Of a stretch of 64,000 nt of DNA, positions 1,978 through 60,450 are shown piece by piece. Within the stretch, counting starts at the first letter, position 1. Every line of letters begins with the position of its first letter. The DNA comes from Candidatus Tayloriibacteriota bacterium (GTDB taxonomy: Bacteria; Patescibacteriota; Minisyncoccia; Phycocordibacterales; PALSA-1337): contig CAIOGI010000001.1 of assembly GCA_903857825.1 (NCBI GenBank), forward strand, positions 40,698 to 104,697, given 5' to 3'. The notes beneath the pieces are model-generated. The model did no database searches and was not told the origin of the DNA. It worked only from the letters and a program-made list of their open reading frames with translations. Made by a program: the position numbers and the translations under genes.

Positions 1978-4176
1978 TTATTCACTCTTCCTATGAAATT
2001 TTTTGTGGATTTTCTTTAATTCTGTATCAGTAACATGTGTATAAATCTGAGTTGTATTGATATTGGCATGGCCAAGAAGCATTTGCACTGAGCGCAGATC
2101 TGCACCATTTCTCAACAGGTCTGTCGCGAAGGAATTATGTGAAATAAAACCATCAGTAATAAAGTTTGAGTATTTATTAATGGTAAAATCAAATACCTCG
2201 GTTTTACCTTTAATATTTTCTATTTTTTTTATCTTTAACCACCGAATATGCGAATTCAGTTTAAGTAAATTCTCAAGTATATCAATCGATCCATCTTTTA
2301 AGCCATTTCCTCGCAAAACAGTTATGATTTTCATTAATAGATTAGCAGACAAACAGATATTTTTATATCTGGTTAGATTTTTTATATTACATTTATTTTG
2401 TATTTCATATACCAATCCCTTATTTTGCAACAATATTGGATATAATTTCCTTAGTATTTGCTGACATGGTATTTTTTCATCCTCAATAATTTCGGGATTT
2501 AATATCGTCTTTTGTTTAAGGGTTTGAATTAAAGACTTAAAGTTTCTCTGGTTTTTAAAGGTGGTTATATGAAGCACATAAATAGTATTGTCAATTATTT
2601 TTCCTTGTGGGAGCTTAACTTTTCTATCTCTTTTTAATAAAATAGAGTCAATATTAAGTATTAAAAATAAAGATTGAACATCTTTTAACAGGTCTTTGCT
2701 TGTTGAAAATACTTTTATAGTTCCATTATTGCCTTCCGCATCATAATATCCAGCAAGAAATGCGCTTATCTCTTCCTTGCTCGCCTTAAACAGACTCTCG
2801 GGAACACGCCTATATTTTGAGTATTGTGTAATACCAAGTTTTCTCAGTTTTCTTAATAACTTAACATCATAAATATATAAAGAATGTGATTTGCTTTCTT
2901 TATTTGGACCAATTATTGGCTTCCTACCAATTATTTTTTCTGCCAAATTTGCATAATATTGAATATGCTTTATGTCCTTATCATTGATAATAATTCCTCG
3001 CCTTCTTTCACTTAAGGTACCATCTCCTAAAATATATCCCGTCAACCTCCAAAAATCCTTGCCCTCACCATCTTTTTTGTTAAAAGAAAAATCTACATGT
3101 TTTATGCCTGCAACATAGTCTCCAACAGATAGATCCTGCATTTGTCTTTCAACAATCCCATTTGTATTTACTGTAAAAAATGTATGATATGGTGTAGCTA
3201 TAATTTCTCTGCCATCTGCCCACATGCTTGATAGATTCTCTGTCGAATGCTTTTTTTTGGCAATAACCTTACCTTTCATTATTTGGCCATTATTAAGGTC
3301 TAGACTCATTACCATGCTTTGCTTGGAATTATTCAATTTATTTGCAGAAAAAATCCCAGAGCTTGTAATAATCCTTGTGTCTGAGTGTAAGCAGTGGCGA
3401 ATAACGTGTGGCGTTACTTTCTTGGAAATACCACTATTTATGGCATACTGCTTGACTATTCTCTCAACTGTTCTTCTATCTAGTCTTAGCGAATCCTTTT
3501 TCTGAGCCATTTTCTCATTCTTCTTGCCTGTAATTTGCACAAAAAGTGCATCGTCCATATCATCTCTTTTATCTAAATATTTTTGTACAGCGTTTCTTGC
3601 ATCATCTGAAATAAATACCACACGAACCTTCTCACCCTTTCCTCTGACAGACATTTCATCTAATTTTAAGTTTATATCTCTAGGGAGGGCACATAACTCC
3701 GACACACGAAGACCTGTTGAAAAAAGTAGCTCTAGCATGGCTTTATCTCTCAAGCCCTTCAAATTGCTTGTGTCTGGGGCGTTAAGCAAACGAACAAGTT
3801 CTTCAATAGTTATCAGATCTAATGATCTTTCTGGTACTTTTGCTAGCTCTATTCTATCTGGAGATAGAGAAGTAATGCTCTGTCTAGCCAGATATTTGAG
3901 AAAGGCACGCAATGCTATCAAATAGTAGTTCTGTGTACGTTTCTTTAGGGTTGTTGGGGCCAGTCCTTTCTCATTTCTAGCCTCTTGTCTGTTAAGCCAA
4001 ATACGGAAATCGCGTACAACATTGTCAGTAATACCTTTTGGATCTTTTATCTTCGTATAATCTAAAAAACGGCTCAGGTAGCGATCATAATTACGCACAG
4101 TATTCAGGCTTCTACCTTTTTCTATTTCAGTATATTGAAGAAATTCGGTTTTTAGTGAAAAAAGATTTTGCGACAT
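1978..4176 (-). CDS. XerC/XerD-family tyrosine recombinase whose catalytic C-terminal domain is interrupted by a roughly 420-aa intein
   Basis: The N-extein has the typical Xer N-terminal region ([13 protein letters not shown]...) and [13 protein letters not shown] (the Arg I region). The sequence ...TPHVIRH is then split from [34 protein letters not shown], which carries the catalytic Tyr. Confidence 0.85.
2134..3393 (-). mobile_element. Intein (Cys1 ... His-Asn, with a +1 Ser) carrying a LAGLIDADG homing endonuclease, inserted directly after the catalytic RH of the recombinase
   Basis: It starts [13 protein letters not shown] and has block B TPYHT. Two LAGLIDADG-type motifs are present ([12 protein letters not shown] and [11 protein letters not shown]). 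It ends FISHN followed by S. Extein coordinates were worked out from residue counts. Confidence 0.8.
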
Positions 4177-4502: not shown

Positions 4503-4772
4503 ATGTTAACAACAAGACAGAAGACAAATATCATAAAAAACGTAGCAATACACGATAAAGATACTGGCTCTCCAGAGGTTCAAATTTCAATATTAACAAA
4601 GAGAATCGAAGAATTAGCTGGTCACTTGAAAAAGCATAAGAAAGACAATCACTCAAGACGAGGACTTCTAGCCATGGTAGCCGATAGACAGACTCACATG
4701 AACTATTTAAAGAAGAAGAGCACTAAGCGTTATAACAGTATCGCGAAGAAACTAGATATAAAGGCAAAGTAA
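4503..4772 (+). CDS. rpsO: 30S ribosomal protein S15
   Basis: GSPEVQISILTKRIEELAGHLKKHKKDNHSRRGLLAMV matches the S15 signature. Confidence 0.95.
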   Translation: MLTTRQKTNIIKNVAIHDKDTGSPEVQISILTKRIEELAGHLKKHKKDNHSRRGLLAMVADRQTHMNYLKKKSTKRYNSIAKKLDIKAK

Positions 4773-4865
4773 AATTGGACTCGCTTGCTTGCGCTCGGAA
4801 GCTCCTCTTTTTTTCACAAGTTCAAAAAAGTAGGACTTCCTCACCGCGTCGAGTCTCAATTTTAC
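4769..4865. repeat. Palindromic intergenic repeat element, copy A. Its termini are gtaaaattggactcg ... cgagtctcaattttac, and it overlaps the rpsO stop.
   Basis: The same element recurs at 36090-36188, with variants at 44676-44702 and 45180-45317. Confidence 0.65.
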
Positions 4866-4977
4866 ATACCCTAATCATTATATGAGTCCAATTTTGTTAT
4901 TAATGGTATACTTAGTTCAGTAAGTATTTTAATAATAGTAGGTTAAATTTTAATAATAAATAAGTAAATAATTTTAT

Positions 4978-5613: not shown

Positions 5614-5634
5614 AAATTTTACACTATGAAACAA

Positions 5635-5669
5635 AAGACCTTGTGGCGGAAGTTCCCAAGGTCTTTTTG
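5635..5669 (+). terminator. Rho-independent terminator hairpin (aagaccttg...caaggtctt followed by a T-run)
   Basis: A perfect 9-bp stem followed by TTTTT. Confidence 0.6.
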
Positions 5670-5736: not shown

Positions 5737-6561
5737 ATGAATGAAATAAAGGATATTGCATTGTTTGAGGGAAAGGAGGTGAGAAAAGTTTGGCATAATG
5801 AAAAATGGTACTTTTGTGTTAATGACATTGTGCTTGTTCTTACAGAAACCGTTGATCCAGTTGATTATATAAAGAAAATTAGACAACGAGATGAAGAACT
5901 TGGCAAAGGGTGGGGACAAATTGTCACCCCCCTTTCAATGCAGACAAGAGGAGGAAAACAGATGATCAATTGTGCAAACTTAGAAGGTATATTCAGAATA
6001 ATTCAATCTATTCCGTCACCTAAGGCAGAACCTATTAGGTTATGGCTCGCTCGTGTAGGCACCGAAAGACTTGAAGAAATTCAAGACCCTGAACTCGCTA
6101 TGGATCGGGCAAAAGCTATTTATGAAAGAAAAGGATATCCGAAGGACTGGATAGACAAGAGAATGAGGGGAATAAATGTTCGTCATAGCCTAACAGACGA
6201 ATGGAAGAACAGAGGAGTAAAGAAGGGTATTGAATTTGCTATTCTTACTGACGAAATATATAAAGGCACTTTTGACATGACTGCACAGGAGTATAAAAAG
6301 CATAAGTCATTAAATAAGGAGAATAATCTCCGTGATCATATGAATGACATCGAACTCATATTGACTATGCTTGGAGAGGCTACAACAACGAAGTTAACGC
6401 AAGATAGAGATTCACGTGAATTTGATAAGTTACAAAAAGATGCGGAAGAAGGTGGGGAAGTGGCAGGAAAAACTAGGAAGGACATTGAAAGTAGGACGAA
6501 GAAGACGGTAATAGCTAAAGAAAATTATTTGCCGAGAACAAGAAAAAATCTAAACTCATAG
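5737..6561 (+). CDS. DinD-family (DNA-damage-inducible protein D) / Bro-N domain protein
   Basis: It has a Bro-N-like N-terminus (KVWHNEKWYFCVNDIV...). The central FAILTDEIYKGTFDMTAQEYKKHKSL...DHMNDIELIL aligns with E. coli DinD FAIFQNRGYQGLYGG...DHMGSTELAANL. Confidence 0.6.
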   Translation: MNEIKDIALFEGKEVRKVWHNEKWYFCVNDIVLVLTETVDPVDYIKKIRQRDEELGKGWGQIVTPLSMQTRGGKQMINCANLEGIFRIIQSIPSPKAEPIRLWLARVGTERLEEIQDPELAMDRAKAIYERKGYPKDWIDKRMRGINVRHSLTDEWKNRGVKKGIEFAILTDEIYKGTFDMTAQEYKKHKSLNKENNLRDHMNDIELILTMLGEATTTKLTQDRDSREFDKLQKDAEEGGEVAGKTRKDIESRTKKTVIAKENYLPRTRKNLNS

Positions 6562-9256: not shown

Positions 9257-9991
9257 ATGGAAAATATGTCTCAAATATTAGAGAAAATAGGACTTTCAAG
9301 CAAAGAATCGGCTATCTATCTGGCCTTACTCAAATATAACAATGCAACCGTACAGGATATTGCAAATGAAGCAGGAATTAAACGCCCAACCACATATCTA
9401 ATATTAGATGAGCTTAGAAAAAAGGGTCTGGTTCTAAAGATCCCCCATGCAAAGAGAGCGATATTTCAAGCCAGGGCACCAGATGAGGTATATGAACAGG
9501 TATCAAACAATTTGAATAATTTTGAAAAGATATTACCTAAACTTCGATCAATAAATCCATCTAGAAACACTGTAAAAACTTTATATTTCGAAGGAGCAGA
9601 AGGTTTAAAGGAATCATTAAACTACAGGCTCGCAGAAATGAAAGACAAGACGCTTGTAGGCTTTTGGGCAAAAGATAGTGGTTTACCAAAAAAGATTCTC
9701 GAATTATTTGATAATTGGAATAAAAATCTATTAAAATACAATATTACTATGGGAGGGGCAACACCAGATCATGAATCAACTAGGAAATATCTACAACAAT
9801 ATCCACAATTTTATAAATACCTTAAATTAGTACCCGAAAAAGACTACTCTTCTGATGTATCAATAGACGTAAGCGATGATTTTGTAAGAATAATAGATGG
9901 ACATGAATTAAAAGCAGTTATTATAGAAGATAAAAGGGTTGCTGATGCTGTAAAACAGATATTTGCACTTGCTTCTAAAAATATTCAATAG
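9257..9991 (+). CDS. TrmB-family HTH transcriptional regulator
   Basis: The N-terminus ILEKIGLSSKESAIYLALLKYNNATVQDIANEAGIKRPTTYLILDELRKKGLV matches the TrmB wHTH. Confidence 0.65.
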   Translation: MENMSQILEKIGLSSKESAIYLALLKYNNATVQDIANEAGIKRPTTYLILDELRKKGLVLKIPHAKRAIFQARAPDEVYEQVSNNLNNFEKILPKLRSINPSRNTVKTLYFEGAEGLKESLNYRLAEMKDKTLVGFWAKDSGLPKKILELFDNWNKNLLKYNITMGGATPDHESTRKYLQQYPQFYKYLKLVPEKDYSSDVSIDVSDDFVRIIDGHELKAVIIEDKRVADAVKQIFALASKNIQ

Positions 9992-10016: not shown

Positions 10017-10064
10017 CTATAGTTAACCCATGAAATCTAAGCAATACACCCTTGAGGTCGGTCC
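10017..10064 (+). repeat. Duplicated pnp 5' end (a pseudo-start encoding MKSKQYTLEVGPLL*). This is direct-repeat copy 1 of the 37-bp core acccatgaaatctaaRcaatacacccttgaggtcggt.
   Basis: It is identical to 12460-12496 apart from one mismatch. Confidence 0.75.
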
Positions 10065-12424: not shown

Positions 12425-12459
12425 AAGCTATACCAATACCCCACATTCTGCTAAACTAT

Positions 12460-12496
12460 ACCCATGAAATCTAAACAATACACCCTTGAGGTCGGT
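12460..12496 (+). repeat. Direct-repeat copy 2 (the genuine pnp start region)
   Basis: See the feature at 10017-10064. Confidence 0.75.
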
Positions 12497-16370: not shown

Positions 16371-16736
16371 ATGAATAAGAAAGATTTAATATATTTCAAA
16401 GACAAGCTGTTAAAGGAAAAAGCTCTACTAGAAGAGGAATTATCCACTATTAGTCGTGTAAACCCAGACAATGCAAATGATTGGGAAGCAACGACTACAG
16501 ATATCGAAGTCGATGCCGCAGACGAGAATGAAGTCGCTGACAAAATGGAAGAACTTGAGGACAATAAATCAATCATAAGACAATTAGAGCCACAATTAAA
16601 CGAAGTAAAAGCAGCTCTTGAGAGGATTGAGTCTGGCACATATGGCGTATGCGAGATATCTGGAGAACCTATAGAAAGAGAGAGGTTGGAGGCAAGTCCA
16701 TCAGCAAGAACATCAATGAAACACATGAAAAAATAG
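16371..16736 (+). CDS. DksA/TraR-family protein, a Cys-poor variant of the C4 zinc finger
   Basis: A coiled-coil N-terminus, then C-terminal GTYGVCEISGEPIERERLEASPSARTS, which resembles the DksA finger but keeps only one Cys. Confidence 0.5.
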   Translation: MNKKDLIYFKDKLLKEKALLEEELSTISRVNPDNANDWEATTTDIEVDAADENEVADKMEELEDNKSIIRQLEPQLNEVKAALERIESGTYGVCEISGEPIERERLEASPSARTSMKHMKK

Positions 16737-16842
16737 GCTTAGGCCTGTTTTTTTATTGTCAATTTAAAAAAGTTATTGTGAAACTACTAAAAACAGTGGT
16801 TTTCTTTATAATTTCTTAATAATTTTATTTTAAACTGGCAGC

Positions 16843-19734: not shown

Positions 19735-21678
19735 ATGTCATCAGGAGAATTAAATCAGAGACAAAAAGAAGCGGTTGAGACCCTTGAAGGGCCCCTTCTT
19801 ATTCTTGCTGGCGCAGGTGCTGGCAAGACAAAGACCATAACCCACAGGATATTGAATCTTATAAAGTCTGGCATTCAGCCATCAAAGATCCTTGCCATAA
19901 CATTTACCAATAAGGCTGCCAAGGAGATGAGGGAACGAGTATTCGACCTGATTGAGAAAGACAAGAGTCTAAACATACCAATATCTTTCGCAGAAAGACC
20001 TTTTGTAAGCACGTTTCATTCACTTGGGGTTCATATAATCAAGGAAAATGCATCTTTATTGGGTATTACCAGACACTTCACCATATATGATCGCGGTGAT
20101 TCCAAAAGAGCAGTCAAGGACGCCCTTGAGCAAATAGGTTTAGATCCCAAACAGCATGATCCAGGAGCAATATTAAATGCTATATCTAGAGAAAAAGGTG
20201 ATGGGGTAACCTTTTCGGCTTATAGGGGAAAAAGTTCTAAAGAATTTTTTACAAAAATTGTTTCTCAAGTTTGGGAGAAGTATGAAGCGACCCTTCTGAA
20301 AGAGAAGTCGCTTGATTTCGACGATCTTTTATTAAAAACCGTGGTACTACTTGAAAATAATGAATCAGTGAGGGAGCATTATCAAAAAGTGTGGGAATAT
20401 ATTCATGTAGATGAATATCAAGACACAAATCAAGTACAGTATAAAATGGTACGCTTGCTAGGAGGACACAACAATGTGTGCGTTGTGGGGGACGGGGATC
20501 AAAACATATATTCATTTCGTGGTGCGAGTGTTAAAAATATTCTTGATTTTGAAAAAGATTTTCAGAATGCCAAAGTTATTACACTTGAAGAAAATTACAG
20601 GTCAACACAGACCATACTCACAGCAGCAAATAACGTCATAAAGAAAAATGTAATGCGTAGAGAAAAAAATCTCTATACAAAAAATGCTGAGGGTGAAAAA
20701 ATTGAATTATTAATTTCTTACATAGAGCAAGAAGAGGCCAGAATGGTTGCAGATGAGGCGAGAAAAAAAATTGATTCAGGAACCAATCCTAGGGATATAG
20801 CGGTCTTGTATAGGGCAAATTTTCAATCACGAGTCTTGGAGGAAGCATTTTTAAATAAAAACATTCCATATCAAGTCCTTGGAGTAAAGTTCTTTGAGAG
20901 AAGAGAGATTAAAGATGTCCTCTCATTTATCAAAGCATCTTTAAACAGAGACAGTACAAATGATTTAGTTAGAATTGTAAATGTTCCACCAAGGGGTATA
21001 GGGAAGGCCACGATTCTAAAGGTAATCACTGGGCAAGAAAATACGCTTGGACCAGCATTAAAAAATAAAGTTGCAACCTTTTTAAATTTGCTTGAAAGAA
21101 TAAAGGGTGTTGCATTAAAAGAGACACCATCACAATTAATAAAGTACATTATTCGCGAAAGTGGTATGGAAAATATATACAAAAATGGGACTTCGGAAGA
21201 GCAGGAAAAGCTTGAAAACCTTAGAGAATTAGTATCTGTAGCCACGCAATACGATTCATTACCTACTAACGAAGCTATAGAAAAGTTATTAGAAAATGCA
21301 GCATTAGCAACAGATCAAGATGAATTGGAAAAAGACAATAATGCTGTTCGTCTTATGACAGTTCACGCATCTAAGGGTCTTGAATTTGATTATGTATTTA
21401 TTGTTGGACTTGAGGAAGATCTATTCCCACATCAAAGATTAGGCAAGGAAGAGATAAGTATGTCCGAATCAGAAGAGGAACGTCGTCTTTTCTATGTAGC
21501 ATTGACTAGAGCAAGAAAAAAAGTATTCTTGAGTTATGCCCAACTTAGAACTATTTATGGCGCACAAAAAGTTAACGCTCCGTCAAGCTTTATTTCTGAT
21601 ATCGGAGACGAACACATAACGTCTGTTGGTGATGTGGAGGCCCCTAGAGGAATAAAGGCAATCTTCATCGACTTTTAA
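19735..21678 (+). CDS. pcrA: ATP-dependent DNA helicase PcrA/UvrD/Rep
   Basis: AGAGAGKTKT (Walker A), VDEYQDTN, and helicase motifs through to the C-terminus. Confidence 0.9.
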   Translation: MSSGELNQRQKEAVETLEGPLLILAGAGAGKTKTITHRILNLIKSGIQPSKILAITFTNKAAKEMRERVFDLIEKDKSLNIPISFAERPFVSTFHSLGVHIIKENASLLGITRHFTIYDRGDSKRAVKDALEQIGLDPKQHDPGAILNAISREKGDGVTFSAYRGKSSKEFFTKIVSQVWEKYEATLLKEKSLDFDDLLLKTVVLLENNESVREHYQKVWEYIHVDEYQDTNQVQYKMVRLLGGHNNVCVVGDGDQNIYSFRGASVKNILDFEKDFQNAKVITLEENYRSTQTILTAANNVIKKNVMRREKNLYTKNAEGEKIELLISYIEQEEARMVADEARKKIDSGTNPRDIAVLYRANFQSRVLEEAFLNKNIPYQVLGVKFFERREIKDVLSFIKASLNRDSTNDLVRIVNVPPRGIGKATILKVITGQENTLGPALKNKVATFLNLLERIKGVALKETPSQLIKYIIRESGMENIYKNGTSEEQEKLENLRELVSVATQYDSLPTNEAIEKLLENAALATDQDELEKDNNAVRLMTVHASKGLEFDYVFIVGLEEDLFPHQRLGKEEISMSESEEERRLFYVALTRARKKVFLSYAQLRTIYGAQKVNAPSSFISDIGDEHITSVGDVEAPRGIKAIFIDF

Positions 21679-21694
21679 AATAAACAAAATCATA

Positions 21695-22477
21695 ATGAAT
21701 AATAATTTCACTGCAAAAAAGTCTTTGGGTCAAAACTTTCTTCACGCACCGAATGTTATTTCTGCAATGGTTCATGCTGGAGAAATTTCTAAAGAAAATA
21801 CCGTGCTTGAGGTTGGTCCGGGGAAGGGCGCTTTGACGATAAAACTTTTAGAGACCGGTGTACACGTTATTGCAATCGAAAAAGACGATAGGGCTATTCC
21901 ATTTTTAGAAGAAAAGTTTTCTAACGAGATAAAAAGTGGTCAGCTCGAACTAATTCATGAAGATGTACTATCTTTTAACGAAAAAAGATTGAGTAACTAT
22001 ATTCTAATAGCAAATATTCCATATTATATAACTGGAGAATTTATGAGAAAGTTTCTAGAGACTTCAAATCCGCCTATAAGGATGGTTGTAATGCTTCAGA
22101 AGGAAGTAGCAAAAAGGATAGTTGATGCGAAGGGGAGCATTCTTTCTTTATCAATAAAGTCATATGGTGAACCGAAATATCTAGTAACTGTACCGAAAAA
22201 GTTCTTTAGACCGATACCAAATGTTGATTCCGCCGTGCTTATTGTTAATAACATATCAAAAAGATACTTTACGGAGTCTGGCATAAATGAAAAATACTTT
22301 TTTGATGTAATAAAAACTGCTTTTGCTCACAAAAGAAAGGTTGTTATAAAAAATCTAGAGCAAATAATACCAAGAGAAAAGCTAAATCTCATATGGGAAA
22401 GAGAAAATCTATCTACCAATGCGAGAGCAGAGGACTTATCCACTGAAATGTGGAAAAAAATCGTAGGAAATCCATAA
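21695..22477 (+). CDS. rsmA: 16S rRNA (adenine1518/1519-N6)-dimethyltransferase
   Basis: KSLGQNFLHAPNV, VLEVGPGKGALT and NIPYYIT. Confidence 0.9.
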   Translation: MNNNFTAKKSLGQNFLHAPNVISAMVHAGEISKENTVLEVGPGKGALTIKLLETGVHVIAIEKDDRAIPFLEEKFSNEIKSGQLELIHEDVLSFNEKRLSNYILIANIPYYITGEFMRKFLETSNPPIRMVVMLQKEVAKRIVDAKGSILSLSIKSYGEPKYLVTVPKKFFRPIPNVDSAVLIVNNISKRYFTESGINEKYFFDVIKTAFAHKRKVVIKNLEQIIPREKLNLIWERENLSTNARAEDLSTEMWKKIVGNP

Positions 22478-22542: not shown

Positions 22543-23763
22543 ATGACTTGGTGTAATATGATAGTTACAATGAATAAGACATATTATAAAAGAAAAATTT
22601 ATTCGGCTCTTAAAGAGCATATGAACAGTAATGATGTGACGATTATTACTGGTATGCGTCGTACTGGAAAAACAACCCTGGTAGAACATTTATTAAGCGA
22701 AATTGACTCAAAAAATAAAATATTTCTAGATCTAGAGAAAATTAGTAATCAAGAACTATTTTCAGATAAAAACTATGATAATGTGATCATAAATCTAGAA
22801 CGGAGAGGCCTCACACAAAAAGAGAGAATGTTTGTGGCCCTTGATGAAATACAAACGATGCAAAATATTCCGAGTGTTATAAAGTATTTACATGATCATT
22901 ATAATATAAAGTTTATTCTGACTGGTTCAAGCTCTTATTACTTGAAAAACCAGTTCACTGAGTCCCTAGCTGGCAGAAAAATGCTTTTCGAACTTTTCCC
23001 TCTTGATTTTAGTGAATTTTTAACATTTAAAGAGATTCCGCACATAGCAACTAAAAATATTGAATTAATCAAGTCATTCGATACTAATGAATTTGATAGA
23101 TTGAAAGCATATTACGAAGAATACATAGAGTTCGGTGGTTTTCCAAAAGTTGTACTTGCACAAAAAATCGAAGAAAAGAAAAATATATTAGATGATATTA
23201 TAAGTTCATATATTAATATTGATATAAAAAGTATTGCTGATTTTAAAGAAAGCTCTTCAATAATAAATATAGCTAAAATGTTGGCTGGAAGAATAGGGAA
23301 TAAGCTAGATTATTCTAAAATATCACATCTTACAGGCCTTTCTCGACCAACAGTGCAAAATTATATTAGTTTATTTGAACAGACCTATCTCATTTCTCTG
23401 GTACCAGTCTTTACAAAGAATCAAGACAGAGAGATAGTAAAAGCCCAAAAAATATACTTCTCAGACAATGGTCTAGCCGGAATCCTTGCCGACATTGACA
23501 GTGGATCAAAGTTTGAAAATGCTATTTTCAATCAACTTCGTAAAAAAAATAATATAAAATATTTTTCATTAAAAAATGGCAATGAAATAGACTTTATAAT
23601 GGACAATAAACTAGGTTTAGAGGTAAAGGAAACACCCACAGGACATGATTTGAAAGATTTAAGTAATTTGTCTGAAAAAGCGGGAATAAGTTCATATAAA
23701 TTAGTTGGTAGACACAAAACACCAAATTTTTCTGAATATATGTGGGGAGGCAATATTCTATAA
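22543..23763 (+). CDS. AAA-domain ATPase with a C-terminal DUF4143-type domain. It is the cargo of a direct-repeat-flanked insertion.
   Basis: TGMRRTGKTT (Walker A) and FVALDEIQ (Walker B) in the architecture typical of the AAA_14/DUF4143 family. Confidence 0.7.
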   Translation: MTWCNMIVTMNKTYYKRKIYSALKEHMNSNDVTIITGMRRTGKTTLVEHLLSEIDSKNKIFLDLEKISNQELFSDKNYDNVIINLERRGLTQKERMFVALDEIQTMQNIPSVIKYLHDHYNIKFILTGSSSYYLKNQFTESLAGRKMLFELFPLDFSEFLTFKEIPHIATKNIELIKSFDTNEFDRLKAYYEEYIEFGGFPKVVLAQKIEEKKNILDDIISSYINIDIKSIADFKESSSIINIAKMLAGRIGNKLDYSKISHLTGLSRPTVQNYISLFEQTYLISLVPVFTKNQDREIVKAQKIYFSDNGLAGILADIDSGSKFENAIFNQLRKKNNIKYFSLKNGNEIDFIMDNKLGLEVKETPTGHDLKDLSNLSEKAGISSYKLVGRHKTPNFSEYMWGGNIL

Positions 23764-23774
23764 TAGACAAATAT

Positions 23775-23814
23775 GGACTTATCCACTGAAATGTGGAAAA
23801 AAATCATAGGAAAT
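23775..23814 (+). repeat. Direct-repeat copy 2. It is a pseudo 3' end of rsmA encoding ...LSTEMWKKIIGNN*.
   Basis: See the feature at 22441-22480. Confidence 0.75.
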
Positions 23815-34797: not shown

Positions 34798-36090
34798 ATG
34801 CAAAAAGTATTTATAGCCAGCATATCAATAGTGATACTTATCCTTATCGGTGCAGGGGTGTATTGGTATGTGAACAAAGACATAGTCTCACAGTTACCAG
34901 CAACTACTGAGGGTGAAACAAGAGATCCTTTTGTTCCACTTAACAGAAATGGAATTACAGCAGAGAATCCAAACACCCCAACAAATCAGAATGAAAATAC
35001 TGAGCCCACAACACCATCGAACAACGCATCTTTTAAAATGCCCAAGCTTAGACAATTGAGCAACACGCCAGTAGCAGGAATGTATGCCAGCACAACAAAA
35101 ATAAGGGATTTAAATTTCTCAAGCACAACAATTGAAAAAACAATAGTTCGTTTTGTCGACAGGGGAACTGGGCACATATACGAAGCAAATGATAGTGATT
35201 TAAATATAGAAAAACTATCAAACACGACACTTCCAAAGATCTATGAGGCTTTTTGGAATAAAAACCTAACAGCAATGGTTGTGAGATATTTAAAGGACAA
35301 TACAGACATGATCACAAACTTTTATGCTGAAGTAAGGTCAAATCCAAACTCAACAGCATCTTCTACAACATCGTTCGAAGTTAAGGGTAAATATTTATCT
35401 CCAAATATTAACCAAGTAGCTGTATCTCCAGAAGGTAACAGAATATTTACATGGAATATTGAAAACGATAGCGGTGTTGGCTATTTATCATCTTTTGATG
35501 AAAAAGGTAAAACAAAAATAATAGATACTCCGCTAACCCAAATGAATATTGACTGGCCAGCAACATCTACAGTTACACTAACCACTCGCGGATCGGGTTT
35601 TTCTTTGGGATATATGTATGCAATAAACACAAAAAACGCCTCTACACGTAAACTATTTGGTGGAATTCGTGGTATATCTGCCAAAATGAGTAGGGATGGC
35701 AAGAATGTTATTTATTCTACTGGTGGAAACAATCTTACCTTAGGACTTTTCAATACAAACAAGTCTGAATTCACAGAAGTCATGTTCAATACGATCGCAG
35801 ACAAGTGTGTGTGGAGCTCAATCAGAACAAATGAAGCCTACTGCGCTGTTCCAAACGAAACACCTGCCGGAGTGTATCCCGATGATTGGTATAAGGGTAA
35901 AATCTTGTTTACAGATAAAATATGGCACCTAGACACAACGACAGGGGAAGTGCACTTATTGGCAAACCTTCTTGATCTTTCAAATAAACTGATTGACGCT
36001 ACTGAACTTGTACTTGATCCAAAAGAGAATTATTTATACTTTATAAACAAAAGGGATTTGACGCTTTGGGCACTAGATCTAAACCAGTAG
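34798..36090 (+). CDS. N-terminally anchored extracytoplasmic protein that is beta-rich. It is the last gene of the cluster.
   Basis: The transmembrane anchor ISIVILILIGAGVYWYV. Confidence 0.45.
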   Translation: MQKVFIASISIVILILIGAGVYWYVNKDIVSQLPATTEGETRDPFVPLNRNGITAENPNTPTNQNENTEPTTPSNNASFKMPKLRQLSNTPVAGMYASTTKIRDLNFSSTTIEKTIVRFVDRGTGHIYEANDSDLNIEKLSNTTLPKIYEAFWNKNLTAMVVRYLKDNTDMITNFYAEVRSNPNSTASSTTSFEVKGKYLSPNINQVAVSPEGNRIFTWNIENDSGVGYLSSFDEKGKTKIIDTPLTQMNIDWPATSTVTLTTRGSGFSLGYMYAINTKNASTRKLFGGIRGISAKMSRDGKNVIYSTGGNNLTLGLFNTNKSEFTEVMFNTIADKCVWSSIRTNEAYCAVPNETPAGVYPDDWYKGKILFTDKIWHLDTTTGEVHLLANLLDLSNKLIDATELVLDPKENYLYFINKRDLTLWALDLNQ

Positions 36091-36188
36091 TAAAATTGGA
36101 CTCGCTTGCTTGCGCTCGGGAGCACTTTATTTTTATACGCAAGCTAGTAAAAATAAAGTCTCCCTCACCGCGTCGAGTCCAATTTTAC
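36090..36188. repeat. Palindromic intergenic repeat element, copy B. It exactly fills the gap between convergent stop codons.
   Basis: Its termini gtaaaattggactcgcttgcttgcgctcgg ... cctcaccgcgtcgagtccaattttac are near-identical to copy A. Confidence 0.7.
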
Positions 36189-36926
36189 TTATAGTGGCTG
36201 ATGCTTCTTTAAATGCCTTCTAACTACTAGTTCCTGACCCAATGTGAACAAACTGCTTATAGCCCAATATAGAGCAACTACAGCTGATATTTTGTAGGAG
36301 ATTAGAAACACAATAACAGGAAAAACATATTTCATGTTTTTCATCATGTTTTGTGCCATATCCATTTGTGATGGTGGTCCCTTTGGTGCATTCGTATTTG
36401 GTTTTGGTGCTGTGGCTGAAAGAGAGTAGTGTAATTGGAAGAATTGAGCCGCTGCAGCAATTATCGATAATGGTATGCTTCTAACTCCAATATCCATAAT
36501 GCCCAAAAAATGCATATTTATAATGGGAGAAGAAACAAAGCTATATAAAAGAGCATCCTTTACTACTGGTAATCCTGAATTAATGAAAATTGAGTAAAGA
36601 GCATAAATAATTGGTAGTTGTATTATCAAAACAAGAAAACTAGAAAAAGGATTGACCCCCTTTTCCTTATACAAAGCCATAACCTTAACAGCTTGTTGTT
36701 GTTTGTCTGGAACTGTTTCTTTTAACCTGTTTAATTCTGGCTCTATTTCTTTCATCCTAACCTGCGTAACTATGGCTTTCTTTGAGAGAGGGAAGAGAAT
36801 GAGTCGAACAATTATTGTAAGAATAATCACAGCAATTCCAGCATCTGCCCAAGGAAAGACATCTATTAAATAGATTAACCCATTATAAAGAGGGTTAAAG
36901 ATAAAAGTGTTGTATATATAAGACAT
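36189..36926 (-). CDS. yidC: Membrane protein insertase YidC/Oxa1 (the short form)
   Basis: ...IVRLILFPLSKKAIVTQVRMKEIEPELNRLKE...KVMALYKEKGVNPFSSF.... Confidence 0.9.
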   Translation of the reverse strand: MSYIYNTFIFNPLYNGLIYLIDVFPWADAGIAVIILTIIVRLILFPLSKKAIVTQVRMKEIEPELNRLKETVPDKQQQAVKVMALYKEKGVNPFSSFLVLIIQLPIIYALYSIFINSGLPVVKDALLYSFVSSPIINMHFLGIMDIGVRSIPLSIIAAAAQFFQLHYSLSATAPKPNTNAPKGPPSQMDMAQNMMKNMKYVFPVIVFLISYKISAVVALYWAISSLFTLGQELVVRRHLKKHQPL

Positions 36927-44675: not shown

Positions 44676-44702
44676 GTAAAATTGAAGCGAGTCCAATTTT
44701 AC
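44676..44702. repeat. Short copy C of the palindromic repeat (gtaaaattgaagcgagtccaattttac), overlapping the ruvC stop
   Basis: It shares the terminal motifs of copies A and B without the internal region. Confidence 0.5.
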
Positions 44703-45179: not shown

Positions 45180-45317
45180 GCAAAATAGGCTTGCCAATCT
45201 TGCGGTCGGAAGCACTTTATATTTCTAGCTAAGGCACTTGTTGTTTGATAAATCAAACAATGTCGCGCAAGCTAGGAAATATAAAGTCTTCCTCCCCGTT
45301 GGCTCGCACTATTTTGC
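45180..45317. repeat. Variant copy D of the palindromic repeat family (gcaaaataggcttgcc ... ggctcgcactattttgc), with a central 9-bp perfect inverted repeat ttgtttgat-aa-atcaaacaa
   Basis: Its internal segments gcggtcggaagcactttat and gcgcaagctag are shared with copy B. Confidence 0.55.
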
Positions 45318-45319
45318 AG

Positions 45320-45853
45320 TTACTCTGCATTGGTAAATACCTCCTGCACCTCCTCATTTTCTTCCAAAGCTTCAACAAGGGCCTGGAGCTTCTCTATATC
45401 CTCATCTTCAAGTGGCATGGTTGTCGTTGCCGCAATCACTCCGTCTGGACCCTTTGCAAAAGCCCACGACGCACTTCCTGGAGAAGCGAGCTCCGCGCCA
45501 TGTCTTGCAAGTATTGCCTTTATTTCCTGAGCAGCTTTGTTCCTGTTGTCTGTTAATACCTCGACAAGTATAGCAATACCACCTGGTCCGTATGATTCAT
45601 ATTGAATATTTTCCATCTGAGCACTGTTGTCTGTTGTTGCTTTTTTTATTGCTCTTTCAATAGTGTCGTTCGGCATATTTTCTTTTCTTGCCTTTTCAAT
45701 AGCTAAAGCTAGTCCTGGAGACTTCAGGTTTCCTCCAGATTTCTTTGCCTCTACTGTGATAAATCTAACAAGTTTACCGAACACATTACTCTTTTTTGCG
45801 TCATTAGCAGCCTTCTGATGCTTGATCTTTGAAAATTTATTATGTCCTGACAT
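45320..45853 (-). CDS. yebC: YebC/PmpR-family (TACO1) probable transcriptional regulator
   Basis: MSGHNKFSKIKHQKAANDAKKSNVFGKLVRFITVEAK.... Confidence 0.9.
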   Translation of the reverse strand: MSGHNKFSKIKHQKAANDAKKSNVFGKLVRFITVEAKKSGGNLKSPGLALAIEKARKENMPNDTIERAIKKATTDNSAQMENIQYESYGPGGIAILVEVLTDNRNKAAQEIKAILARHGAELASPGSASWAFAKGPDGVIAATTTMPLEDEDIEKLQALVEALEENEEVQEVFTNAE

Positions 45854-45854
45854 G

Positions 45855-46691
45855 TTATTGTTTGTTATTTTTTAATTTTTTAGTATCTTTTTTATATTTT
45901 GATTCTACTTTATTTATATCTTCCGCGGGAGGAAGATTTTCAGGATAAATACCTGTTTTAACAAGAACCCCACGAACACCAATATTATTATTCACGTGCT
46001 CAGTAAGTATACTATTTTTTCCTTGAAGATTTTTTCTGCGAGTATTTTCTGAGGTCATGGCAGTAGCAAGATCTTTTGCTTTTAGTGTGATATCCGGTAA
46101 AAAGTCAGCCAAAGGTTTTGAAGAATCTATACCCAATCTTTTCTTCATTGTATCTGTACTCTTTCCACCAAACAAAGCTTGATCACCAAAACTTCTTATT
46201 TCACCCAAACCCCTTCCATCGACGCCCCTACTCATAGCCAGAGTGCTAAAATCTTTCTCTGTAATCTTTAGTTTTTCCCTGGAATTTATTCTTTCTAATT
46301 CAGCCATTCTTTGTTCCAATACCTCCATTTTTCTTGTTTGGGTAACAAAATATGCTTGTGCAAATGCAACTTCTTTTTTTCTAGGATCACCGTTTAGGGC
46401 TGTTAAATAACATGCATATCTTGTTAATTTCATATCGTCAATACTTTTTTCTATATCAAGGCCTATTTTCGCCATTTTCTGCACGTGCAGGAAATGGTCT
46501 TCCACGAGACTTTTCGCATTTTTGCAGGCTTCCTTTGCTCTTTGTATTGTGGTATCAAAATTATCCCAACGGGTATATCCAAGTAGTGGATATAGTTCTC
46601 TCGCAAACCAAAACTCAACACCATTTTCTGTGTGTTTTATATCATCAAAGGTTTTGTATAGAGTTTGTAATTCTTTATTCTCCATTCCCAC
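45855..46691 (-). CDS. dinD: DNA-damage-inducible protein D (DinD family, Bro-N-like N-terminus)
   Basis: EFWFARELYPLLGYTRWDNF...KLTRYACYLTALNGDPRKK...AYFVTQTRKMEVLEQ aligns closely with E. coli DinD. Confidence 0.8.
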   Translation of the reverse strand: MGMENKELQTLYKTFDDIKHTENGVEFWFARELYPLLGYTRWDNFDTTIQRAKEACKNAKSLVEDHFLHVQKMAKIGLDIEKSIDDMKLTRYACYLTALNGDPRKKEVAFAQAYFVTQTRKMEVLEQRMAELERINSREKLKITEKDFSTLAMSRGVDGRGLGEIRSFGDQALFGGKSTDTMKKRLGIDSSKPLADFLPDITLKAKDLATAMTSENTRRKNLQGKNSILTEHVNNNIGVRGVLVKTGIYPENLPPAEDINKVESKYKKDTKKLKNNKQ

Positions 46692-48611: not shown

Positions 48612-48669
48612 AACTATTAATATATGCTAAGCTAATTGGGTTAGTGAATAGCGGAGCAAATGTAGCATT

Positions 48670-48900
48670 TTTACAGGAATCCTTCGGATTCATAAATCTC
48701 TAAACAATATAGTCCGTTTACTCGAACTATCTGGTGTAGTTTTGAGGACATTCTGGTTATAAACCTCGTGTTTATTTACTGGGATTATCCTTGATGCTAC
48801 GTTTAACTTTTGGTGATCGCATTGAAAGTATTGTTTAGAGATTCATGCACCCGATTTACTCGAGACGAGCAAATCAACCTCTCTATCTGGGTCTAATACT
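48670..48900 (+). ncRNA. Candidate structured ncRNA (class unknown, possibly 6S-like) in a 343-bp gene-free gap
   Basis: A gaatcc-ttcg-ggattc hairpin (UUCG-type loop) at 48676-48692. A 16-bp long-range inverted repeat (aaatctctaaacaatat at 48694-48710 pairing with atattgtttagagatt at 48828-48843). A direct repeat ccgWtttactcga. Confidence 0.3.
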
Positions 48901-48954
48901 ACCTACTATTAATAGAAAATTCAATTGACACTAATTTTCTTTTGAGTTTTAAAG

Positions 48955-50933: not shown

Positions 50934-50997
50934 GTTTTTAATTTAAAAAAGTTAAATATTGTATTTATTATAGCGTATAAGGTAAATTTGACTGCTA

Positions 50998-51025
50998 TTG
51001 ACTTTACCGCTGACTGTGATATAAT
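50998..51025 (+). promoter_or_regulatory. Consensus promoter 1 (TTGACT-N16-TGaTATAAT, an extended -10), followed by leader hairpin agccagaa-ttgt-tctggct at 51036-51054
   Basis: It is near-identical to the promoter and leader at 51511-51570. Confidence 0.6.
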
Positions 51026-51072
51026 ACTACCGTAAAGCCAGAATTGTTCTGGCTCGGTTACGGAATGATCAT

Positions 51073-51458: not shown

Positions 51459-51510
51459 TATTTTCGATTAGGTAGTAATTGATTAGCAGGTTTAATATCT
51501 TTTAATACTA

Positions 51511-51538
51511 TTGACTTTGTGTCTAGATGTGATATAAT
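51511..51538 (+). promoter_or_regulatory. Consensus promoter 2 (TTGACT-N16-TGaTATAAT), followed by leader hairpin gctggaa-tatgttgt-tccagc at 51550-51570
   Basis: A paralogue of promoter/leader 1. Confidence 0.6.
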
Positions 51539-51592
51539 ACTAGTGTGAAGCTGGAATATGTTGTTCCAGCCAGATGACGGAAAGTTCTTCCT

Positions 51593-59150: not shown

Positions 59151-59178
59151 AAAAAATCTGCAGAAGTGCAGATTTTTC
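59151..59178. terminator. Bidirectional terminator (AAAAA-atctgca-gaag-tgcagat-TTTTT) downstream of the tRNA
   Basis: A perfect palindrome flanked by A and T runs. Confidence 0.6.
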
Positions 59179-60291: not shown

Positions 60292-60450
60292 GCAAAACAC
60301 CCCGTGAGGGGTGTTTTGCCAAAGACTAGGTTGTCTTTGGTGGACACGTACATTCAGCTGCTGGCTTTTCACATGTTGGGCAAGTTGCTTCACTCATAAA
60401 TTGTTTAGAAATTAAGGCGAATAATTTCGACCGACTCGATTACTATTATA

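Follow-up and report, generated by a model that had tools for sequence, protein, structure and literature searches.

A family of dispersed palindromic repeats was found at gene ends in a 64,000-nucleotide (nt) stretch of DNA from Candidatus Tayloriibacteriota bacterium (contig CAIOGI010000001.1, positions 40,698 to 104,697; hereafter the window) and in contigs of its relatives. The family is probably a non-autonomous, hairpin-forming mobile DNA of about 95–140 bp, of the REPIN/ERIC-like kind, that resides in some Patescibacteria, a group also called the candidate phyla radiation (CPR). Alignment of the copies, together with comparison of filled and empty sites, showed that they share a common origin and were inserted at gene ends without target duplication. 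The insertions were into the few bases past stop codons, sometimes replacing the last codons of the gene and donating a TAA of the element's own. Later changes, read from the same alignments, were an internal deletion (copy C), an extension of the tip (copy D) and double substitutions that kept the pairing. We infer that the element would be moved by an enzyme acting in trans and would serve as a leaky bidirectional terminator or as a hairpin shielding the 3' end.

Four copies had been proposed in the initial annotation to be palindromic repeats beside gene stops. They were re-read directly in the sequence, and their relations to stop codons were checked against the list of open reading frames (ORFs); sequence, ORF list and folds agreed with the proposal. 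Copy A (4769–4865, plus strand, subtype 1, 97 nt) and copy B (36090–36188, plus strand, subtype 1, 99 nt) had the same left end, GTAAAATTGGACTCGCTTGCTTGCGCTCGG (30 of 30 nt identical). Their right end, CCTCACCGCGTCGAGTC(T)CAATTTTAC, was 26 or 27 nt long with a single indel between them. The inner stems of A and B were unlike in sequence, in line with the earlier description of differing inner segments, and both still paired.

Copy D (45180–45317, plus strand, subtype 3, 138 nt) had the architecture of A and B with diverged ends, GCAAAATAGG...CTATTTTGC. Copy C (44676–44702, minus strand) was a remnant hairpin of 27 nt, which read on the minus strand as GTAAAATTGGACTCGCTT plus CAATTTTAC, the opening 18 nt of an A/B-type copy being joined directly to its final 9 nt. 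This make-up would fit an internal deletion or an excision footprint. With a covariance model of the family, A scored 95.6–101 bits, B 106–112 bits, D 83–91 bits and C, weakly, 15 bits. A filter-free scan of the whole window with such a model matched these four copies and nothing else.

The long hairpins predicted for these repeats folded far below the energies of shuffled sequences. The folds were −34.3 kcal/mol for A (z score −5.4), −42.9 kcal/mol for B (z −8.1) and −60.4 kcal/mol for D (z −9.1), and for each of the three none of 200 shuffles was as stable. The hairpin of copy C gave a z of −7.6.

A relic resembling the right end, GAGTCCAATTTTGT (4884–4897, plus strand), was located 18 nt downstream of copy A, with three mismatches to the 15-nt terminus. 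Contigs L002 and L003, which are without copy A, hold the homologous GAGCCGATTTTGT. The relic and its homologue suggest that an older copy of the element once stood at the site of A.

All window copies were at stop codons or no more than 2 nt away, as the initial annotation had placed them. The TAA of rpsO (4770–4772) is made of bases 2–4 of copy A, and the TAA of ruvC (44699–44701, minus strand) lies inside copy C, so that both stops are donated by the element. A 430-aa ORF and yidC are convergent, and copy B exactly takes up the space between their stops. The TAG of the ORF (36088–36090) ends on base 1 of the copy, and the yidC TAA (36189–36191, minus strand) begins 1 base past its last base. 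The TAA of yebC (45320–45322, minus strand) is 2 nt from copy D, and the ATG of ruvC is 10 nt from the other end of D. The yebC-ruvC operon is on the minus strand, and its mRNA therefore carries the reverse complement of the model strand of D.

The identities of S15 (rpsO), YidC, RuvC and YebC were borne out by Pfam. The 430-aa ORF to the left of B, which closes a type IV secretion-like gene cluster, had no Pfam match. The three full copies are all on the plus strand, on either side of dnaA; the GC skew tracks the coding strand and gives no position for the origin. Truncation of YebC by copy D was considered and ruled out: YebC proteins of 175–177 aa are normal in the clade, including element-free genomes.

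Comparison with relatives revealed the empty sites. Contig L145 (729 kb, about 75% identical to the window) and L148 (about 72%) both span yebC to yidC. At the site of B in L145, the convergent stops abut, CTATAA being followed by TTATAG with 0 nt between. The site was also without the element in L148, L152, L155 and L156, with stops 0–9 nt apart. The empty TA-A-TTATAG and the filled TA-[element]-TTATAG revealed no direct repeat. Copy C was absent from L145 and L148, whose last RuvC codons differ. Copy A was absent after an identical RpsO gene in L002 and L003, and after a more than 90% identical RpsO gene in L129–L134.

The site of D gave a different pattern. The window and L145 have orthologous subtype-3 copies there, and in the outer stem of the L145 copy a C-G pair has been replaced on both sides by T-A. 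In L148 the occupant is of subtype 1 instead and matches window copy A at 86% identity. The yebC-ruvC gap without the element is 2 nt in L155 and 14 nt in L156, and L152 has an extra ORF between the two genes and no element.

The empty sites at A, B and C, and at D in distant relatives, therefore indicated that the copies arose by insertion. Judging from these alignments, sites are gained, and the occupant subtype at a site is replaceable. The suggestion of a mobile element that targets gene ends was upheld as far as insertion is concerned. The targeting part was not: neither a target motif nor a duplication was found, and the gene-end position could just as well reflect biased survival of insertions where hardly any DNA lies between genes.

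Copies were also present in other genomes, with ends that were conserved or co-varying, and the family is not confined to the window. A search with the left-half pattern AAAAT-N-GG-N9-CTTGCGSTCGGRAGC gave five metagenome contigs with real copies, and more copies came from the syntenic contigs of relatives. The further copies were nine distinct ones, in addition to the two at the site of D in L145 and L148. Seven of the nine were full-scoring (L124, L125, L126 a, L126 b, L127, L128 and L148 843–942), and two were weak, at about 33 bits (L126 3970–4067 and L128 8782–8878). Together with A, B, D and the copies at the site of D in L145 and L148, the seven made up 12 full-scoring copies, and the family had 14 distinct members including the weak ones. 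L135 is the same sequence as L126, and L140 the same as L124.

All members were in tight intergenic gaps by housekeeping genes. The element was located between ftsZ and trxB (L128 and L135). L135 has two further copies where trxB faces a convergent nuclease gene, and L128 has a degenerate one upstream of ftsZ. In L125 it lies between the stop of rplJ (0 nt) and rplL (33 nt), and in L140 between the stop of smpB (5 nt) and the gene for transfer-messenger RNA (tmRNA; 13 nt). L148 has one between a 122-aa ORF and tRNA-Lys (14 nt), and L145 and L148 each have one between yebC and ruvC. Two copies flanking trxB in L135 (9872–9968 and 10944–11040) were inverted and identical at 93 of 97 positions, and a third, degenerate copy was 19 nt further. 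This pair could be a local duplication or a composite arrangement.

Relatives had 0–3 copies per 20 kb. No copies were present in the fetched regions of L129–L134, L152, L155 and L156. From these and from the filled and empty sites, the distribution was therefore patchy. The left-half pattern had no match in viral contigs, blastn of copy B against phages and plasmids gave no match, and no Rfam family overlapped the elements, whether with the gathering threshold or with E ≤ 10. A scan of the genome collection with the G+C-rich pattern CTTGCGCTCGGN{30,60}CCTCACCGCG gave only chance matches in high-GC genomes. The low-GC candidates from it, in L048 and L050, were both coding sequence and were rejected.

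The 12 full-scoring copies were aligned to one structure, in which each copy is a single long imperfect palindrome. The outer stem is 15 bp long with the base G-N-AAAAT...ATTTT-N-C. It is followed by a near-invariant internal loop, 5' cTTGcG-S-TCGg and 3' CcTc-M-CCG, around a 4-bp helix GCGS/SCGU, of which the S co-varies between subtypes. In copy B, the 5' strand of this asymmetric loop is CTTGCTTGCGCTCGG (36105–36119, plus strand) and the 3' strand is CCCTCACCGCGT (36162–36173, plus strand). The near-invariant loop columns were also seen in the copies found by synteny, not by the search pattern. The inner stem is AT-rich and 13–18 bp long, usually with a bulged C, and the tip is variable.

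An apical extension of about 38 nt (45225–45263, plus strand) is present only in window copy D, as compared with the 100-nt ortholog in L145. It pairs with the old loop (CTAGCT/AGCTAG), which lengthens the hairpin, and adds a small hairpin. At another tip, that of copy B, the loop sequence CGCAAGC (36138–36144) is exactly complementary to GCTTGCG (36109–36115) in the invariant loop. The tip CGCAAGC was present in about half of the copies (B, D and the L128, L145 and L148 copies) and absent from the other tips. This complementarity could allow a pseudoknot or an alternative fold.

Pairing was strongly kept in the 12 copies. Of the aligned cells, 94.2% were paired, versus about 50% when the partners were slid by 1–3 columns, and both sides were changed in 18 of the 38 pairs. 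None of 500 shuffles came up to the observed percentage of pairing, to the numbers of two-sided changes (by pairs or by cells) or to the covariation score. The covariation is no proof of selection, because template switching during replication can also produce double changes in a DNA palindrome.

Three subtypes were distinguished by the outer part. Subtype 1 includes A, B, L127 and the L148 copy between yebC and ruvC; subtype 2 includes L128, L125, L124 and L148 843–942; subtype 3 includes D, L145 and L126 a and b. The inner module GCACTTTATTTTTATACGCAAGCTAGTAAAAATAAAGT (38 nt) was identical or 1 nt off in B (subtype 1), L148 843–942 (subtype 2) and L145 (subtype 3). The genomes with this common inner module are only about 72–75% identical in DNA over syntenic genes.

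The orientation of the copies to host transcription was mixed: four were sense, seven antisense (five of the 12 full-scoring copies and the two weak copies), two lay between convergent genes, and one could not be assigned. G-T pairs outnumbered A-C pairs by 9 to 2 where the mRNA has the element strand, and by 12 to 4 where it has the complement. Since the G-T pairs keep to the element strand and the orientation is mixed, the strand asymmetry is intrinsic to the element and is not set by the host transcript.

The ends of the element resembled simple hairpins of the same genome. A scan of the window for an A-tract, a stem and a T-tract gave eight hairpins, versus 0.6 in shuffles. Four of the eight were intergenic, three directly past a gene stop and one by tRNA-Lys (5633–5667, 16728–16753, 59152–59177 and 60292–60319). 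The last of these, GCAAAACACCCCGTGAGGGGTGTTTTGC, is 1 nt past a stop. These simple hairpins are probably the ordinary bidirectional terminators of the genome. They were missed by the standard terminator scan because the T run belongs to the stem. The element has AAAAT/ATTTT tracts at its base, with only four T and CAA before them. Because its ends share the design of the simple hairpins, a role as a bidirectional terminator or a 3'-protecting hairpin is plausible.

Two related candidates were examined at individual sites. The 3' region of rpsO in L002 was considered as a classic terminator (CCGCC-CTCA-GGCGG-TTTG) and was rejected: with a z of −1.6, it folded no better than shuffles. No functional replacement is therefore claimed at this site. 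Inspection by eye for an internal promoter for ruvC, rplL or tmRNA gave weak −10-like TAAAGT motifs and no convincing −35.

We propose the following sequence of events. One strand of the element, folded as single-stranded DNA, would be recognized through its asymmetric loop by an enzyme supplied in trans, possibly in the manner of the REPIN/RAYT or IS200/IS605 systems. The inserted element would be co-transcribed with the upstream gene. Its ends, copying the A-tract/stem/T-tract design, would then act as a leaky bidirectional terminator or as a hairpin protecting the 3' end.

A number of observations weigh against this reading. The window ORFs and the genes annotated in the fetched loci included neither a transposase nor a Y1/HUH (Y1_Tnp) gene, and no autonomous parent was found, the element termini occurring within the window only in short elements. 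The copy number was small, with three full copies, one remnant and one relic in about 80 kb (the window and about 15 kb of flanking sequence). No target-site duplication was seen beside A, B, C, D or the other copies, and the left and right flanks of 14 copies shared no constant sequence; the left flanks varied (…CAAA, …AGTA, …TTAG, …CTTG and …CCAG). Copies A, B, C and D were unchanged in same-species contigs from other samples, and no insertion polymorphism was seen among those examined. Precise loss at each site is formally conceivable, the compared genomes being distant (about 75% identity). Apparent compensatory changes in DNA palindromes can result from template-switch mutation instead of selection.

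The terminator step has difficulties of its own. The consensus terminator scan flagged none of the elements. As a terminator, the element would be atypical, with four U past the stem and two A between the U and the G+C-rich part. Several copies are 8–33 nt upstream of a co-directional gene (ruvC, rplL and trxB), and some are 13–14 nt from tmRNA or tRNA-Lys genes that need expression. Because these genes and RNA genes directly downstream must be expressed, any terminator role would only be leaky.

A host-selected, cis-acting RNA hairpin spread by duplication was considered as an alternative, and we regard it as rather improbable. Such a hairpin, between cistrons or in a 3' UTR, would be an RNase III-type processing site, a barrier to 3' exonucleases or a protein-binding motif, and would tune how strongly adjacent genes are expressed relative to each other. 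RNase III sites of phage T7 have a similar two-stem architecture with an asymmetric loop. The strongly kept pairing and the conserved internal loop agree with this explanation, and so do the sites between the housekeeping cistrons rplJ and rplL, ftsZ and trxB, smpB and tmRNA, and yebC and ruvC. Genomes about 75% identical have kept the element at the last of these sites, and a compensatory change there turned a C-G pair into T-A. On the other hand, with the mixed orientation the asymmetric loop would be read as its complement in over half of the cases, and the G-T pairs track the element strand and not the mRNA strand. Sister lineages have the same operons without the element, with gene gaps of 0–14 nt, the occupant subtype at one site is replaceable, and no Rfam family matched. 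Other RNAs (signal recognition particle RNA, 6S RNA, Y RNA, a retron or a guide RNA) were dropped, since no model matched and the element occurs in multiple copies of varying orientation.

The copies might also be ordinary intrinsic bidirectional terminators, long and of common ancestry, which duplicate only rarely and stay similar through gene conversion. The basal A4–5/T4–5 tracts are like those of the simple hairpins in the window, and copies lie directly past stops and between convergent genes. This explanation is unlikely, for it does not lead one to expect identical ends of 30 nt and 26 nt at unlinked loci, nor a common inner module across genomes that are 72–75% identical. It also has to face the insertion into a 0-nt gap between abutting stops, the copies directly before genes of the same operon, the failure of the consensus scan to detect any copy, and conserved loop bases that termination does not need. 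Least probable, to the point that we give it very little weight, is a DNA-level site for protein binding or recombination (by a tyrosine recombinase or a nucleoid protein), comparable to integron attC or dif-like sites. A conserved structure with variable sequence, unpaired bases and a variable tip past ORFs is loosely attC-like, and a XerC/D-like recombinase gene lies 0.6 kb from A. However, the ends G-N-AAAAT and ATTTT-N-C do not match the attC core sites RYYYAAC/GTTRRRY, the neighbors are housekeeping genes in conserved synteny and not cassettes of the arrays next to an intI gene in which attC sites occur, and the recombinase gene by rpsO is also present in relatives without A.

The non-autonomous mobile palindrome is thus the reading that we retain as probable. 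A more specific form of it is speculative, and we would not expect it to hold: a novel CPR mobilization system, in genomes that otherwise have almost no transposons, that reads the asymmetric loop CTTGCG-S-TCGG/CCTC-M-CCG in folded single-stranded DNA in a strand-specific way and places complete, stop-bearing bidirectional terminators precisely at gene ends. It would amount to a 'mobile terminator' on which the host relies in its ultra-compact operons.

The family was compared with known systems. REPINs and REP sequences are moved by RAYT transposases in Pseudomonas and Enterobacteria (PMC3337134). REPINs have A and T runs at both ends, for which a co-option for transcription attenuation was suggested, and their excision leaves short palindromic footprints (PMC3337134). 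Like REPINs, the element is extragenic, non-autonomous, about 100 nt long and hairpin-forming, without target-site duplication and with A/T runs at its ends; there are several subtypes per genome, and copy C resembles the REPIN footprints. Unlike a REPIN, which consists of two inverted REP palindromes, the element has a 5' arm, GTAAAATTGGACTCGCTTGCTTGCGCTCGGAAGC, without an internal palindrome, and its fold is one continuous hairpin. Its copies probably number tens at most, versus hundreds, no RAYT/Y1 gene (in REPIN genomes typically flanked by the repeats) was present in the sequence examined, and it belongs to another phylum.

The ERIC/IRU elements of Enterobacteriaceae and Vibrio are imperfect palindromes of about 127 bp. 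They share with the present element the form of one long imperfect palindrome, transcribed and intergenic, near stops, in either orientation and with size variants due to indels. This likeness is architectural only, with no kinship in sequence expected; the element is from another phylum, has a conserved asymmetric loop and is built of outer and inner modules. In Neisseria, the Correia elements (CREE/NEMIS) create a duplication of their TA target, and their terminal inverted repeats, of a defined 26 bp, are related to a transposase. They and other classical miniature inverted-repeat transposable elements (MITEs) are likewise 100–150 bp long, with inverted ends, gene-adjacent and co-transcribed, and can act as terminators or RNase III substrates. 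They differ in that no duplication was seen between the filled and empty B sites and that the whole element is palindromic, not the ends alone.

IS200/IS605 derivatives, which are palindrome-associated transposable elements, offer strand-specific recognition of imperfect hairpins in single-stranded DNA without duplication, which would fit the strand asymmetry of the element. IS200/IS605, however, has a subterminal hairpin at each end and a fixed 4–5-nt target 5' of the insertion, whereas the left flanks here are not constant. Bidirectional terminators have the same A-tract, stem-loop and T-tract past stops and between convergent genes, and the simple hairpins of the window share the GCAAAA...TTTTGC ends with the element. 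The stem of the element is, on the other hand, 3–4 times longer, with conserved loops and a short T-tract off a G+C-rich stem, and the element is repeated and insertable. It is a dispersed palindromic intergenic repeat family that behaves like REPINs, ERIC and Correia elements and falls strictly within none of them. The resemblance to REP, MITE or ERIC elements drawn in the initial annotation therefore holds for the general kind, dispersed imperfect palindromes, and not for strict membership in REP/REPIN, MITE, Correia or ERIC.

Other features were noted in the surroundings of the copies. The window is a fragment of a Patescibacteria genome with a G+C content of 36%, carrying rnpA-yidC, dnaA and dnaN, the type IV secretion-like cluster, toxin-antitoxin genes and Bro-N genes. 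Its YebC is 81% identical to that of the nearest named relative, 'Candidatus Taylorbacteria'. The XerC/D-type tyrosine recombinase by rpsO (1978–4176, minus strand) is 732 aa long because it carries an intein, which has a LAGLIDADG endonuclease domain. Intein-free recombinases of 313–316 aa are encoded at the same place in relatives (L002 and L129). Bro-N genes were located at 5737–6561 and 45855–46691 of the window, at 9418–9990 of L148 and at 20217–20936 of L135. They come and go between close relatives, and two lie near element copies. One of those in the window is directly upstream of yebC, and the second lies two genes past A; there is none at the yebC site of L145.

Two insertions of another type were seen in the window. 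Direct repeats of 46 nt, 89% identical (10017–10062 and 12451–12496), flank a 2.4-kb AbiEii/nucleotidyltransferase island. The repeat consists of the first 11 codons of pnp (MKSKQYTLEVG) and upstream bases, which indicated that the insertion of the island duplicated the 5' end of pnp. L002 has no AbiEii/nucleotidyltransferase genes between the TrmB gene and pnp. Direct repeats of 40 nt, 98% identical (22432–22471 and 23775–23814), which duplicate the 3' terminus of the rRNA adenine dimethylase gene, flank an inserted AAA_14/DUF4143 ATPase gene (22543–23763), which is not present after the dimethylase gene of L129.

A gene-free region of 343 nt between ruvB and a small ORF (48612–48954) gave a large branched fold of −83 kcal/mol (z −4.8). 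In BLAST, the segment spanning this region and ruvB was 87% identical to L145, versus 72–77% in the neighboring segments. The region matched no Rfam family and may represent a structured RNA, on either strand, that has escaped annotation. A 58-nt repeat, 74% identical (50987–51044 and 51500–51557), contained a near-consensus promoter, TTGACTTT...TGTGATATAAT, and precedes two small ORFs without Pfam match; the local G+C content is higher there (0.41).

The genomes of Patescibacteria are tiny and tightly packed, and mobile elements in them are believed to be very few. Searches of Rfam, phages, plasmids and the full-text literature gave no dispersed palindromic repeat family described in this group, and as far as these searches show, the present family has been undescribed in CPR bacteria. 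With the covariance model, such elements can be annotated in metagenome-assembled genomes, and the model could further help in the search for the enzyme that moves them and in reading strain history from filled and empty sites. Some 100 bp of DNA can enter cleanly where two stops have no base between them, or between the genes of an operon, and can even bring a new stop codon along. Elements of this kind are therefore able to remodel the ends of genes and possibly the boundaries of transcription units. If the terminator role is true, they would represent transcription signals that spread as mobile DNA.

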